From Escherichia coli (GTDB taxonomy: Bacteria; Pseudomonadota; Gammaproteobacteria; Enterobacterales; Enterobacteriaceae): DNA of 47,767 bases. The notes under the pieces were generated by a model. It had not been told where the DNA came from, made no database searches, and saw only the letters and a program-made list of their open reading frames with translations. Location of the stretch: the NCBI GenBank assembly GCA_024546615.1, contig GCA_024546615.1_5040.1. One strand, 5' to 3'. Positions 7,670 through 24,471 of the stretch are shown here, piece by piece. A program made the position numbers and the translations under genes. How positions within the stretch are numbered: the first letter of the stretch is position 1; every line of letters starts with the position of its first letter.

Positions 7670-7847
7670 ACAATGTCCCCACTCGTTTTAAATCGCGCCG
7701 TGCGTGACAGCTATAAGTACCATCGTCCCACTGCACATAGTAGCGCGGTGGCTCATCAGTCATTACGTTTGCGACAACACCCGTAACGACACCGTTGGGG
7801 AACAACTTCACAAGTGTTCCGGTTGGATAACGTGGAATGGTTGTCAT
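7653..7847 (-). CDS. Hypothetical protein (64 aa)
   Basis: Minus-strand ORF upstream of DUF551-like gene. Confidence 0.4.
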   Translation of the reverse strand: MTTIPRYPTGTLVKLFPNGVVTGVVANVMTDEPPRYYVQWDDGTYSCHARRDLKRVGTLYGKLD

Positions 7848-7974
7848 AATTACTCACCCTCATACAGCGGTTTCAGTTGATACCCGAACATGACAGCGTT
7901 GTTATGCGCCACACTGCCCGCGCGGACCAGATATGTCGTACCGCGGTTGGTTGTCACTTCGTATGCGTATGGTT

Positions 7975-8340
7975 TCATTTGTCACCCTCCGACAGTTCAT
8001 CAATCAGACGCTCCAGATACCAGCGGGCCTTTTTCACATCTTCCAGACCGTTCTTCTCTTCGTAGCGCCACAGGTATTTAACAACGTTTGCCACACATAC
8101 CGCCTCGATACCAGTTTTACCAACCGTGGCGGCTTCGATAGCATCGATACACTCAATACCACCTTGTGTGTAGTGTGACGGATGATTGACCATGTCATTG
8201 ACTGCTACGGGTTCACGTTGGGCGATGATTTTTGATGTTTCCTCATGACTATTATATTGACAAACATAGTCACTGTTTACATTTTTAAACCTATCACCCA
8301 GTGAATAACCCTCGGAGCAATAATGCCTATCGGAGTACAC
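7975..8340 (-). CDS. Hypothetical protein (121 aa)
   Basis: First gene of minus-strand block downstream of promoter at 8462-8490. Confidence 0.5.
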   Translation of the reverse strand: MYSDRHYCSEGYSLGDRFKNVNSDYVCQYNSHEETSKIIAQREPVAVNDMVNHPSHYTQGGIECIDAIEAATVGKTGIEAVCVANVVKYLWRYEEKNGLEDVKKARWYLERLIDELSEGDK

Positions 8341-21122: not shown

Positions 21123-22547
21123 ATGGATTTGCGCCAGTATGAAATACTCATTGATACAAAGAATTTCATTACACAGTCGTACCCGATGCTTCGGTGCTCG
21201 TTCGATGTGACAACGTATACCGGTGACAGCCTGAGTACCTGTGAGTTTCGCTTGTGGAACCTTGCGCCCACAACGAAGATTGAACCGAATCAGACCGTTG
21301 TTTTTCGCGCCGGGTATCAGTCGCGCATCGGTCAGATTTTTACCGGGTTTGTCACCAACGTTTTCACCATTCGTGACGGTACTGACATCATCACCCGTGT
21401 GACGTGTCGCAGCGGCAGTAACGTGCTCGACGGTGGGACAACGAGTGCGAGTTTCGGTAAGAGCGTGACATTATTTGACGTCTTGACCAGTCTCGCACAG
21501 GACTGGTCGAAACCGTTATATCTTGTCAATAGTGTGGACAAATTTACCTCCATTGTCATGGCTGGGGGCTATAACGTCAGCTCCGATATCAGTAAGGAAC
21601 TTGACATTCTGGCCAAAGCATACGGCTTCGAATGGCATCTGTACGCCGGACAGGTGTTCGTCGGATTTCCATCTGATGAACGTAAAGCCACGCCCATCAA
21701 AATCAGTTCCGCCACCGGGATGATTGACGCACCCACGCTTCACGGCGGCATTGATGGCGTATTCTGTGACGTTAAAATGCGTCTTGACCCCCGTATGACA
21801 CCCGCATCAGTGCTTAATATTGAATCTAAATGGCCTAAATTCGATTTCGGCGCGGTAGAATTCCAGTCAACCGTTGACGCTAAACTGGAAGGTGACTGGA
21901 ACGTTCAGACCATTCAACATACCGGCGACACACACGGTCCCGACTGGTACACGTTTGTCAAAGCTGTGCGCGCCGGGTCAATGGATACCACCACGACAAA
22001 TACTGATGTTGGTAATCGCCTCATTTACGGTCGTGTTGGCGTGCAGGGTGAGGACGCCAGTCAGCAGCAGGATTTCCGTACCGAGGTGCGTAAACTTGGG
22101 CAAAGTCTGGGTATCAGTCCAAACTGGATCATGGCTGTAATCTCTGCGGAGTCTAACTTCAATCCGCAATCAAAGAACAGTAAATCTGGCGCAGTGGGTC
22201 TGATTCAGTTTACTAATGCTGGTTGGACGAGTGCGTTTCAGAGTAAGTATGGTCGTAATAAAAATATCATACTGTCAATGACTGCAGCCGAACAGGTCAG
22301 AGGTCCTATTACTGATTATCTCAATCAGTACAAAGGGCGTTACAAAACGATGGGCGATGTGTACATGGCTGTATTTAGTCCGGCATTCATCGGTAAACCT
22401 TCCACTACCGTGATGTACACGTCACCGTCCAGAGCGTACAATCAGAACGCAGGGCTTGACACGGACCATAAAGGTTACATTACCGTCGGTGACGTGTGGC
22501 GGCGTGTTGAGGAACGATTCAGACAAGGTAAGGCGTACATGTTATGA
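21123..22547 (+). CDS. Tail protein with C-terminal lytic transglycosylase (SLT) domain
   Basis: C-terminal AVISAESNFNPQS...GAVGLIQF motif; RBS AAAGGAG; track ORF starts at TTG 21117. Confidence 0.6.
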   Translation: MDLRQYEILIDTKNFITQSYPMLRCSFDVTTYTGDSLSTCEFRLWNLAPTTKIEPNQTVVFRAGYQSRIGQIFTGFVTNVFTIRDGTDIITRVTCRSGSNVLDGGTTSASFGKSVTLFDVLTSLAQDWSKPLYLVNSVDKFTSIVMAGGYNVSSDISKELDILAKAYGFEWHLYAGQVFVGFPSDERKATPIKISSATGMIDAPTLHGGIDGVFCDVKMRLDPRMTPASVLNIESKWPKFDFGAVEFQSTVDAKLEGDWNVQTIQHTGDTHGPDWYTFVKAVRAGSMDTTTTNTDVGNRLIYGRVGVQGEDASQQQDFRTEVRKLGQSLGISPNWIMAVISAESNFNPQSKNSKSGAVGLIQFTNAGWTSAFQSKYGRNKNIILSMTAAEQVRGPITDYLNQYKGRYKTMGDVYMAVFSPAFIGKPSTTVMYTSPSRAYNQNAGLDTDHKGYITVGDVWRRVEERFRQGKAYML

Positions 22548-23194
22548 GTTTAATTAACCTTCTGGTAAAGCGCGGCCCACAGCTTGGGTCGCTTCAGTTC
22601 GATGCCGTCCTGTCTGATGACCTTGATGCCAGCGTGGATATCGTGCAGTACCCCATTGAGACAGGTACGCCAATTGCAGACCACATTATCTATCAGCCTA
22701 TTCGTTACACGATGACAGGTGCGGTATCGAACAACCCGTTGAAAGTTAGTATCACCGATTTCACCGGGGTATTGACAAATCTCGTCGATGATAATCCGTT
22801 CATTGCAGCGGGTGCCGGTCTGTTCGCGGGGTGGTTAAGCGGCTCGAATGAAACTCGCTCCAGTACGACACTGAACACTTTGCTTGATTTCATGTACTCC
22901 GGGCAGGTATTCACAGTGGATACGGGTGAAATCACGCTGAATAATATGGTCATTCAGCGTATCGGGCGCTCTAAAGACCCGGAGAATGAGAACGGACTGA
23001 TATTTGTTGCTGAACTACAGCAGATTGTCACGCTTGACCGCGTGGCGAACGGTTCACAACCGGCACAATATCAGCTGAACAGTAACGACGTTTCCAGCAC
23101 ATCCATATCAGGACTGATTGAGCGTGGTTACATCAATGTGAAAACAGCTGCAACGAATGTTGCTGACCAGGTTACGACACTTTTGGATTTGTAA
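22544..23194 (+). CDS. Putative baseplate/tail assembly protein (216 aa)
   Basis: Stop/start overlap with upstream gene; position in baseplate module. Confidence 0.45.
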   Translation: MSLINLLVKRGPQLGSLQFDAVLSDDLDASVDIVQYPIETGTPIADHIIYQPIRYTMTGAVSNNPLKVSITDFTGVLTNLVDDNPFIAAGAGLFAGWLSGSNETRSSTTLNTLLDFMYSGQVFTVDTGEITLNNMVIQRIGRSKDPENENGLIFVAELQQIVTLDRVANGSQPAQYQLNSNDVSSTSISGLIERGYINVKTAATNVADQVTTLLDL

Positions 23195-23220
23195 AAAAAA
23201 ATCCCGCCACGGAGGGCGGG
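23193..23220 (-). terminator. Minus-strand intrinsic terminator (A9 tract then CCCGCC-ACGGAG-GGCGGG)
   Basis: On minus strand reads hairpin followed by U9; on plus strand the hairpin lacks a U tract. Confidence 0.5.
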
Positions 23221-23229
23221 TGAACGCTA

Positions 23230-23745
23230 CAGAGAGATGATACAGCAGGCTGGGTAGTTCAGGTAAAGGCTGTCCCTTAACTCAACTATCTCGCTATCAT
23301 TGTCATGTTTCGCAACGTTACGTTGATAACTTCGGCTTAACCCTGCCGCTGGGAGATACAGGAATCACCTCCTGTCGGGATGTTTAAGGTTGTGGTGGTT
23401 GGAATCGAACCAACTCCCATCGGTGCGCTGCCGATTGCAATACGCGCGGTATTCCGCTACATGACTAGTATTTTCACAGATACCTATTTGCTAGCTCGCC
23501 ATTGAGCTTCACCACAACGGAAAGAGCACTGAGACACGCGTCCGTGTCGCCTGCGCAATGGGTTCGAGTTCCGCTGATATGCGCCAATGCTCTTACCTGT
23601 TATGTGGTCGAACCGCCACGGTGACCAACCGCATTCGTGCATGCCTGGCTACACATTTCGGCTACCCGCTGATGCGAAGGAATAGGACACCCCGGACCGC
23701 TAAAGACACATGTGCTATATGCCTGTGAATAAATAATTACATTGT
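23230..23745 (-). ncRNA. Candidate minus-strand non-coding transcript with tRNA-like T-arm/acceptor module
   Basis: No credible ORF; inverted repeats GTTGTGGTG (23390-23398) and CACCACAAC (23509-23517); T-loop-like GTTGG-TTCGATT-CCAAC on minus strand; upstream TTGACA-type promoter, downstream terminator. Confidence 0.25.
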
Positions 23746-23796
23746 TTGACGTGAGTGTCAATAGTATACTTGACATTATTTTCACAGGAGGGCGAC

Positions 23797-24471
23797 ATGA
23801 CCGACATTAACCAGCGCCGCTCGTTTTTACAGAACGTCACCAATGACACGTTTTTCGAGAACATGAAGGACGTGTACACATGTATCCCGGGTTACGTGCT
23901 GACGTTCGACCCAGACACACAGCGCGCACAAATTCAACTGGGAATTACCCGGACTGATGATGTCGCTAAAACTACGTTCGACCCACCGCCCATCGTGGAT
24001 GTTCCTGTAAGTTTTCCGGGTGACGACTTCGTACTGGAATTTGCCGTCAATCCGGGTTGTGAAGGTATGGTACATTTCAGTCAACGTTGCATTGATGGAT
24101 GGAAGCAGACTGGCGGTATTGCTGCTAATCCCGTTAAACGCTTTCACCACAAACAGGACGCAATGTTCGTACCGGGTATCCGTTCACTTGACAACCTGAT
24201 TGCAAGTTTTTCCAACGATGGGATACGCCTGCGTAATGCCGACGCGTCACAGCACGTCTGGTTAAAGGGTGATGGTTCATGCATAATGGCTAATAGGAAC
24301 GGCAACGTTCAACTTCTTGCAAACGGCACGGTGAGTATCAACGGCGTGACCATTGATAAAGACGGGAATATCACCGCTCTGAATTCTCTGGTGCTAGATG
24401 GCAAAGAACTCAACGGTCACACTCATGGCGGCGTTGCTTCCGGTGGTGCTAATACGGGGCCGAATAACTGA
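23797..24471 (+). CDS. Baseplate spike / gpV-like protein
   Basis: Position before gpW-like and gpJ-like genes; RBS AGGAGGG; track ORF trimmed to MTDINQ start. Confidence 0.5.
   Translation: MTDINQRRSFLQNVTNDTFFENMKDVYTCIPGYVLTFDPDTQRAQIQLGITRTDDVAKTTFDPPPIVDVPVSFPGDDFVLEFAVNPGCEGMVHFSQRCIDGWKQTGGIAANPVKRFHHKQDAMFVPGIRSLDNLIASFSNDGIRLRNADASQHVWLKGDGSCIMANRNGNVQLLANGTVSINGVTIDKDGNITALNSLVLDGKELNGHTHGGVASGGANTGPNN

Follow-up and report, generated by a model that had tools for sequence, protein, structure and literature searches.

A predicted non-coding RNA gene with a tRNA-derived module in the baseplate region of a Jedunavirus-like phage

What does a phage keep in a gap of its baseplate operon that encodes no protein? 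The question is raised by a stretch of 47,767 nucleotides from the Escherichia coli assembly GCA_024546615.1 (contig GCA_024546615.1_5040.1; this whole stretch is called the window below), which is the genome of a Jedunavirus-like myophage with the Klebsiella phages JD001 and Geezett and the E. coli phage ZCEC13 as relatives. The gap lies between a gene for a Dit-like tail protein (22544-23194) and the gene for a gpV-like spike protein, whose ATG is at 23797. A preliminary description of the sequence had seen no credible open reading frame (ORF) here and had offered a phage non-coding RNA (ncRNA) or tRNA-like element, a degenerate tRNA and a remnant recombination site as candidates. Our analysis makes it very probable that the gap holds a functional structured ncRNA gene on the minus strand, part of which is a tRNA-derived module of 130 nt at 23518..23389. 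The absence of an ORF was borne out: the longest in 23195-23796 are of 61 and 56 aa and neither is conserved. Single-base insertions and deletions separate homologues of the tRNA-like module and disrupt all reading frames, and a protein-coding gene in the gap was rejected on these grounds.

Covariation in a tRNA-like module

The tRNA-like piece and its surroundings, 150 nt in all, are shared by unrelated phages at 80-90% identity, always in DNA that is unannotated or mis-annotated. We collected 53 distinct versions of the module and aligned 40 of them (alignment A2), and a covariance model, R1, was built from 26 members (alignment A3) with the window excluded. R1 gave a single match in the window, at 23518..23387 on the minus strand and over model positions 1-133, with 143.8 bits and E = 1.9e-28. 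Across the 40 copies 94.6% of the pair cells are paired, as against 31-46% when the partners are slid, and changes on both sides of a pair (compensatory changes) occur in 17 of the 36 pairs, the double changes spanning five helices. The observed covariation score was reached by none of 500 shuffles, a control that is inflated since the sequences are related, and RNAalifold independently gave the identical fold. The compensatory double changes, together with changes tolerated as G-U pairs, argue for selection on RNA pairing. Comparison with related phages, a check named in the preliminary description, thus brought out a conserved covarying structure, and the candidate that it had worded as a ncRNA or tRNA-like element of the minus strand is the one that the model match and the helices uphold.

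The order of parts in the family, from 5' to 3', is the first strand of a 9-bp acceptor, AA, a 4-bp D stem with the loop AAUGGC, a helix Pa of 3-4 bp, AUA, a helix Pb of ~9 bp with a 20-nt loop, GCGCGUA, the return strand of Pa, the hairpin AUCGG-CAGCGCA-CCGAU, a 4-nt variable loop GGRA, the T arm and the 3' strand of the acceptor. The window carries what we call a type-1 module, in which the acceptor pairs GUUGUGGUG (23518..23510) with CACCACAAC (23397..23389); the D arm GCTC-AATGGC-GAGC is at 23507..23494, Pa and the extra arm Pb are at 23491..23436, the anticodon-arm-like hairpin (5 bp/7 nt) at 23435..23419 and the T arm GTTGG-TTCGATT-CCAAC at 23414..23398. The 9-bp inverted repeat noticed earlier is the acceptor; it is present, at 23389-23397 and 23510-23518 rather than at 23390-23398 and 23509-23517 as first given, while the two short hairpins (GTTGG/CCAAC and AGCTC/GAGCT) correspond to the T arm and a D-arm-like hairpin. 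The reported likeness to a T arm and acceptor also stood, and the ~120-nt spacing that did not fit a canonical tRNA is explained by an extra covarying arm of ~55 nt, inserted between the D and anticodon-like arms at tRNA position 26.

Genuine tRNAs align end to end to R1 with the Pa/Pb arm skipped, at 17-33 bits: a phage tRNA-Arg(UCU) scores 32.7 bits, tRNA-Thr and tRNA-Ser of T4 score 17-19 bits, and other phage tRNAs match too. In these alignments the equivalent of the 7-bp acceptor is UGUGGUG/CACCACA, with two further pairs outside it, and AUCGG-CAGCGCA-CCGAU occupies the place of the anticodon arm. The module has in common with tRNAs an acceptor stacked on a 5-bp T stem, a consensus T loop (UUCGAUU) closed by G53-C61, a 4-bp D stem whose loop holds GG (G18 G19), and a 5-bp/7-nt hairpin followed by a 4-nt variable loop; it also shares the niches of phage tRNA genes. 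The T loop, the G53-C61 pair and the D-loop GG are invariant in the 40 sequences, so that a tRNA-like elbow is plausible. The module appears from these comparisons to be tRNA-derived. It also appears to be under purifying selection, and therefore not to be a decaying tRNA; of the "degenerate tRNA" proposed at first, the ancestry can be kept and the decay cannot.

In other respects the module departs from tRNAs. It is 130 nt long (70-95 nt would be expected), carries the extra arm and a 9-bp instead of a 7-bp acceptor, and has A33 and C37 in its anticodon-like loop CAGCGCA instead of U33 and a purine at 37. Acceptor and T stem stack to 14 bp rather than 12, and an encoded CCA is not conserved, the 3' flanks of the copies being CU, CC, CA or AC. 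With A33/C37, this stack, no CCA and such a length, the module does not look like a decoding tRNA as encoded. ARAGORN found 0 tRNA and 0 tmRNA in the window, and a scan with Rfam 15 gave no match there at the gathering threshold; both searches had been suggested in the preliminary description. The sole weak Rfam match in the window was to the tRNA family RF00005 (21.8 bits against a gathering value of 29, E = 0.072) and used the wrong 5' half. A canonical tRNA or tmRNA was rejected on these negatives.

The apical loop of the extra arm, 20 nt at 23457..23476 on the minus strand, contains the palindrome ACUAGU (23469..23464). The aligned hexamer is self-complementary, as a perfect or a G-U palindrome, in all 40 distinct homologues, although it comes in six versions: ACUAGU (the window), GCUAGC, UCUAGA, UCUGGA, UCGCGA and ACCGGU. 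Its covariation score is 0.65, versus 0.14 in shuffles. Within a single strand such a hexamer has no way of pairing with itself. Loop-loop pairing of two copies of the RNA is hence the most economical reading, and the palindromic loop suggests such RNA-RNA self-pairing; a dimeric binding site at the DNA level is unlikely because the hexamer sequences are so different. The dimerisation signal (DIS) of HIV-1, a kissing loop, offers a comparison for the covarying palindrome. GCGCGUA and the anticodon-like loop might form a GCGC pseudoknot; either partner hardly varies, and the two variants seen lack a compensating change.

The predicted transcript and its exchangeable cassettes

The module would be transcribed as part of a longer RNA. 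A consensus scan (10/12 matches plus TG) placed a sigma70-like promoter at 23761..23733 on the minus strand, with the -35 TTGACA at 23761..23756, a 17-nt spacer and the extended -10 TG-AATTAT at 23738..23733; if this site functions as a promoter, transcription is predicted to start near A23726. A GC-rich stem-loop of an intrinsic terminator, CCCGCCCTCCGTGGCGGG, lies on the same strand at 23220..23203 and is followed by a U run to 23193. The terminator and the TTGACA site had both been pointed out before, and both held. They bound a predicted non-coding primary transcript of ~532 nt (23195..23726, minus strand), whose folding, likewise proposed as a check, gave z-scores of -1.45 for the whole and -2.9 for the core. 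The diverged homologue L110 (loci compared with the window are given L numbers) retains the -35 and an extended -10 (TGcAATATT), and L143, L147 and L110 are full-length homologues with the same order of domains, each ending in its own terminator. Geezett and ZCEC13 have a different hairpin and U run at the position of the window's terminator.

An inverted repeat TGTCAA-N9-TTGACA (window 23756-23776) overlaps the minus-strand -35 and lies just upstream of the ribosome-binding site of the spike gene. It is operator-like and is unchanged in Geezett and ZCEC13.

Downstream of the predicted start, a conserved 5' domain (23606..23724, minus strand) consists of the hairpin P1 (23724..23704); of P2, in which CGGUCCG (23699..23693) pairs with CGG-GUA-GCCG (23668..23659) and encloses a variable hairpin; of an invariant junction AGCGGGUAGCCGAAAUGUG (23670..23652); and of P4, GGUC...GACC (23626..23606). 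P1, the inner part of P2 and P4 each show compensatory changes, and 12 of the 29 pairs covary (RNAalifold on alignments of 5 and of 19 homologues). At least 120 IMG/VR contigs contain the junction motif, in most cases with other modules downstream of it. When 23585-23850 of the window was compared with 159 phage records, the Jedunavirus relatives were all seen to keep the right-hand ~215 nt (promoter and 5' domain) at 94-98% identity, and the middle of the gap to vary among close Jedunavirus relatives.

Between the 5' domain and the module lies a long irregular hairpin, called A/B here (23519..23606, minus strand), with a variable distal part. Its block A, CACAUAAC-A-GGUAAGAGCAUUG, is at 23606..23585 and its block B, CAGUGCUCUUUCC, at 23531..23519; they form a second inverted repeat (I2, 23519-23531 / 23585-23597) that the preliminary description did not list. 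Block B follows 40-135 nt after block A in 126 of 135 instances of block A, and L147 has the compensatory variant GGAGAGAGUA / UACUCUCUUC. The CACAUAAC (CACAAC) that precedes block A on its 5' side has a second possible partner in the next block, GUUGUG, and the variants of this upstream CACAAC are only transitions that preserve pairing; the alternative helix may be genuine, or the exchange of cassettes may have left a duplication. On the other side of the module, a 3' domain (23221..23388, minus strand) is common to Geezett and more diverged in L110.

The closing stem GUUGUG.../...CACAAC encloses 91 distinct inserts of 61-300 nt in other phages. Geezett and ZCEC13 retain the flanks of the window and hold other inserts between the same closing stems, so the insert behaves as a cassette that can be exchanged. 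In the phage collection, every record covers less than 80% of the gap as it is in the window. A "type 2" insert has two hairpin loops that are mutually complementary and co-vary, as judged by eye, in at least two lineages (L102, L013). A "type 3" insert matches the Rfam family STnc100 (RF02076) below threshold, with 33.4 bits against a gathering value of 47 and E = 3.4e-5. The preliminary description overlooked that the tRNA-like piece belongs, as a single module, both to a predicted multi-domain transcript of ~530 nt and to a large family of modular build.

The third cassette type, GUUGCGGUGAAU...CCGGGAGGCACCCGG-CACCGCAAC at L019 4822-4941 (minus strand), is the STnc100-like one, and an E. 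coli prophage carries two full STnc100 copies downstream of a type-1 module (L009 4292-4485 and 4761-4970). STnc100 and its relative PasD share with the sibling cassette the closing stem, GUGAAU, a 5' hairpin, a variable core and a 3' hairpin CCGGGAGGCACCYGG beside the closing strand, and they occupy the same prophage late-region niche. STnc100 appears to belong to the same superfamily of cassettes. In the window's module the core is conserved and the hairpins are genuine D and T arms. A DicF-like sequence with its own hairpin (22.7 bits, E = 0.02) stands directly 3' of the type-1 module in L143 (2839-2888), which suggests ncRNA precursors with several products. The N4-like phage IME11 (L007) has a non-coding gap of 2 kb with further unannotated tRNA-like elements (2209-2277 and ~2290-2370) beside two tRNAs found by ARAGORN: one has a T arm UCUGG-UUCGAGU-CCAGA and an acceptor ending in ...GCCGGAACCA, and another contains GUAAGGUUCGAAUCCUUAC.

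Occurrence of the module and RNAs of similar build

Carriers of the module include the Salmonella Skateviruses Seszw, Akira and Skate, the lambdoid phage HK75, vB_EcoP-611R6, a Wanchaivirus and the Pantoea phage PdC23. It is present in 175 of 5426 complete E. coli genomes (~3%), always on the chromosome; the two E. coli loci inspected are leaders of prophage late operons, between the Q antiterminator or nin genes and the holin/lysis genes. At least 120 IMG/VR stretches carry it. A 20-mer search of a set with one genome per species found real matches in Klebsiella, Enterobacter and one metagenome-assembled contig resembling an E. coli prophage only, 8 of its 11 matches being chance hits in GC-rich coding DNA. 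In GenBank the module has been taken for a 58-nt "tRNA-Ser" (L003 2511-2568, PQ186186.1), a "hypothetical protein" and "polyubiquitin-A".

The Skatevirus copy has a promoter match TTGACA-17-TAGATT and a terminator, and lies antisense inside a structural operon. In L147 the copy is a stand-alone gene between the portal and terminase genes, and in the L135/L249 type a terminator comes immediately after the module. It appears to be an independent gene in virulent phages because of the promoter and terminator in the window and the Skatevirus and of the terminator in the L135/L249 type. Genome-reduced seszw phages all retain the element in the mutants listed; the deletions targeted annotated genes only, so these mutants are uninformative on essentiality. 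The late-operon leaders of lambdoid phages have the module starting right after tR' and before the holin. Real phage tRNA genes also lie in late leaders, from which they are presumably excised, and the contexts of the module resemble theirs since it is found in late leaders likewise. At L109 (2710-2786, minus strand) an Rfam isrJ match is a short RNA of the pR'-tR' type that ends at the terminator, with an A block ~15 nt after it.

Among known RNAs, the species 1 RNA of T4 (rnaC, 139 nt, in the T4 tRNA cluster) is similar in build: it is a stable phage RNA beside tRNA genes and has long internal arms; its T arm, CCGGG-UUCGAAU-CCCGG, is canonical and immediately precedes the 3' strand of the closing stem. 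In our folding of it (L251 1409-1547; z = -4.6) a closing stem bears two long arms and the T arm. Neither a D arm nor a palindromic loop was seen in it, and R1 matches the T4 tRNAs but not rnaC. Homology to T4 rnaC/rnaD was rejected, there being no similarity of sequence or model; the likeness is architectural only. ROOL and GOLLD are likewise large (~0.5 kb) multi-domain phage RNAs, sometimes beside tRNA genes. Large ornate RNAs of this type are reported to multimerise through loop-loop contacts; they belong to different hosts, and for the window's RNA multimerisation is a prediction. Neither ROOL, GOLLD, YrlA nor any other Rfam 15 family gave a gathering-level match in the window, where scans by E-value returned noise only, and on the homologous loci Rfam found nothing beyond neighbouring tRNA, STnc100, isrJ/K and C4. 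A prior description of the module RNA was not found in the literature; parts of it may be among the 10,006 unnamed candidates in a catalogue of viral RNAs. tRNA mimics are already known, and the module family is new to Rfam 15.

Readings of its function

We slightly favour, as one combined statement, that the gap is a ncRNA gene of ~532 nt, transcribed leftward and inserted, as a unit of its own, into the rightward baseplate operon, and that its product is a processed, stable tRNA mimic acting in trans. The specific mechanism by itself is put forward tentatively. RNase III would act on the long closing helices and RNase P on the tRNA-like fold, with 3' trimming there as well, and the module would thereby be excised from its carrier transcript. 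The L-shaped fold would stabilise the excised module, and two copies would pair through the palindromic loop. The product would then work in trans as a tRNA mimic, occupying or titrating a host tRNA-binding factor of translation, of ribosome rescue or of a tRNA-cleaving defence. That the RNA may be a substrate of RNase III and RNase P is suggested by its positional equivalence to the hairpin of the lambda N leader and by its tRNA-like geometry.

Several points weigh against this proposal. The features of the window taken alone hardly exceed chance: there are 4 promoter-like sites versus 4.1 expected from shuffles and 3 terminator-like sites versus 2.5, and by our own estimate ~0.7 inverted repeats of 9 bp are expected by chance per 600 nt. 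The proof is in the conservation and covariation in relatives, where the shuffle control is inflated and the anticodon-arm-like hairpin owes part of its invariance to having served as the search pattern in the IMG/VR scan. The 14-bp stack and the lack of a conserved CCA make recognition by RNase P, by the CCA-adding enzyme and by EF-Tu uncertain. The neighbouring genes differ among the contexts of the module and give no linked partner protein, and the palindrome could have another reading. Finally, transcription, processing and dimerisation of the RNA are predictions.

The copies in N leaders and late leaders could also act purely in cis, which leads to the alternative that survives best: that the module is a cassette for processing or structure whose fold and closing helices serve only for cutting by RNase III and RNase P or for capping a helix, the excised piece having no function. 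Like the lambda N-leader hairpin, such a cassette would punctuate or stabilise the transcript that carries it. In lambda-like phages the N-leader stem, which lies between nutL and the ribosome-binding site of N, has the module precisely in its interior. In L132 (~7809-8100), which has the lambda pL leader, nutL and N, a type-1 module sits between GGCUUUGG-GGUGUG and CACACC-ACCAAAGCU and replaces the interior of the N-leader stem-loop of lambda (L252), between nutL and the N start codon. Lambda itself has the same closing stem, GGUGUG.../...CACACC, and the same flanks as L132, with an interior that is unrelated in sequence. RNase III reportedly cuts the lambda N-leader hairpin and so separates nutL from the N ribosome-binding site. 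The flanking helices covary in other N leaders (L197, L177, L136, L153), interiors between the same closing stems are interchangeable, and the position in lambdoid prophages, in the late leader right after tR', fits this alternative as well. It would account less readily for the stand-alone genes of the window, the Skatevirus and the L135 type, which have nothing downstream to regulate; the window's copy is outside any mRNA leader and has the A/B hairpin in place of the extended flank helix. A signal for capping or cleavage alone would also have no need to conserve the D loop, the T loop, the extra arm and the covarying palindrome at 80-90% identity across unrelated phages. We consider a purely cis-acting cassette unlikely.

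A base-pairing regulator built on a scaffold seems improbable; in it the tRNA-like fold and the hairpins would serve to stabilise and process a precursor, whose variable or 3'-terminal segments would be Hfq-type small RNAs (sRNAs) directed at mRNAs of host or phage and comparable to STnc100/PasD and DicF. The sibling cassette that matches STnc100 and the STnc100 copies in the same leaders speak for it, as do the DicF-like match 3' of the module in L143 and the end of the window's RNA in a terminator hairpin and U run, a typical Hfq site. STnc100-like RNAs have been described as prophage sRNAs that act in trans, PasD and STnc100 differing in their seed regions and targets. The type-1 module, on the other hand, is conserved and not hypervariable, with no evident single-stranded seed besides its loops, and no STnc100 or DicF match was found in 23100-23900 of the window at E <= 10. 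The motifs of the module were not found for the Pas sRNAs, of which PasA is an 84-nt RNA bearing a terminator; the published text prints no Pas sequence.

Some relatives of the module raise the question of tmRNA. Their linker, ahead of the A/B hairpin and the cassette, contains tmRNA-like tag frames (L006 1312-1344, L007 1820-1852, L008 3831-3863); carriers include phage 6947, the N4-like IME11, a prophage of E. coli 55989 and many IMG/VR contigs. The template reads AUAAAU|GCA AAC GAU ... UAA with the resume codon GCA, always has 10 codons and a stop, and encodes ANDDVVLMAA or one of eight variants, among them ANDDLMMVAA, ANEEMYLAVA and ANDEQFLAVA. The Rfam models tmRNA_permuted and beta_tmRNA match the tag region weakly (E = 0.0013), and ARAGORN found no tmRNA at the tag-bearing loci. 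The cassettes that follow such tags in some phages are of type 1, type 2 or type 3.

The module might thus be a decoy of the tRNA-like domain (TLD) of tmRNA, titrating SmpB or interfering with or substituting for ribosome rescue, and working in relatives jointly with the tag-encoding module; we regard this as quite improbable. A phage-borne tRNA-like fold without decoding capacity has a precedent in the TLD-only gene of mycobacteriophage DS6A, which has been proposed to inhibit tmRNA, and R1 aligns weakly (21 bits) to the 3' part of E. coli ssrA; similarity to ssrA by sequence was rejected, being limited to words of 7-9 nt. In contrast to tmRNA, the module has no G3:U70 (the acceptor pairs are G-C, U-A, U-A) and no CCA, and has a full D stem and an arm like an anticodon stem-loop; the tmRNA models of ARAGORN and Rfam were negative on the window. 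An upstream tag is missing from 109 of the 114 type-1 copies, the window's included, where none was found within 700 nt upstream of the module. Where a tag is present, a complete tRNA-like fold follows it on the 3' side, an arrangement that neither one-piece nor permuted tmRNA has. The rarity of tags on type-1 copies and this topology make the tag frames a lead on the biology of the family and not a property of the window.

That there is no RNA gene at all, the gap holding a decaying tRNA pseudogene, an attP or recombination remnant, some other DNA site or a missed small protein gene, is very improbable and has been largely refuted: the T arm and acceptor do resemble the 3' tRNA halves in phage attP sites (P22, L), GUUGUG/CACAAC stems recur at cassette borders like recombination joints, and one GenBank record annotates the 58-nt "tRNA-Ser", but the compensatory double changes in five helices, the frame-breaking indels, the lack of a host tRNA gene match, the chromosomal position of the E. 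coli copies and the lack of an integrase adjoining the locus in the window stand against it. The remnant recombination site of the preliminary description was not supported, and a host tRNA gene fragment or attP was rejected because the E. coli matches are chromosomal and the two loci inspected are in prophage late leaders.

The processed tRNA mimic acting in trans is the reading that we retain. It can be extended, speculatively and with little confidence, into a joint claim: that these RNAs form an undescribed class of large modular RNAs, made of the conserved 5' domain and interchangeable cassettes with a common closing stem, and are a self-assembling device against the host, whose palindrome-driven dimers or assemblies would sequester SmpB, an anticodon nuclease, RelA or a processing enzyme for host takeover or anti-defence, the cassette system also carrying phage-made tmRNA-like tag templates.

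The module is common, with ~3% of complete E. coli genomes and at least four unrelated phage groups, yet it has been missed by tRNA finders and Rfam, and despite its strong covariation it is unannotated or mis-annotated in GenBank. It offers a concrete and testable RNA of unusual design, with an arm at position 26 and a loop that appears to be selected for self-complementarity. It joins the RNase III hairpin of the lambda N leader, the STnc100/PasD sRNAs and the phage tmRNA-like tag frames into one cassette system, which also covers unexplained non-coding gaps in therapeutic Klebsiella and Salmonella phages. Some phage tRNA mimics, such as the species 1 RNA of T4, have gone without an assigned function for decades. 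If it is true that the function of the module touches translation, ribosome rescue or tRNA-targeting defence, it would represent a new RNA-based tactic of phages.

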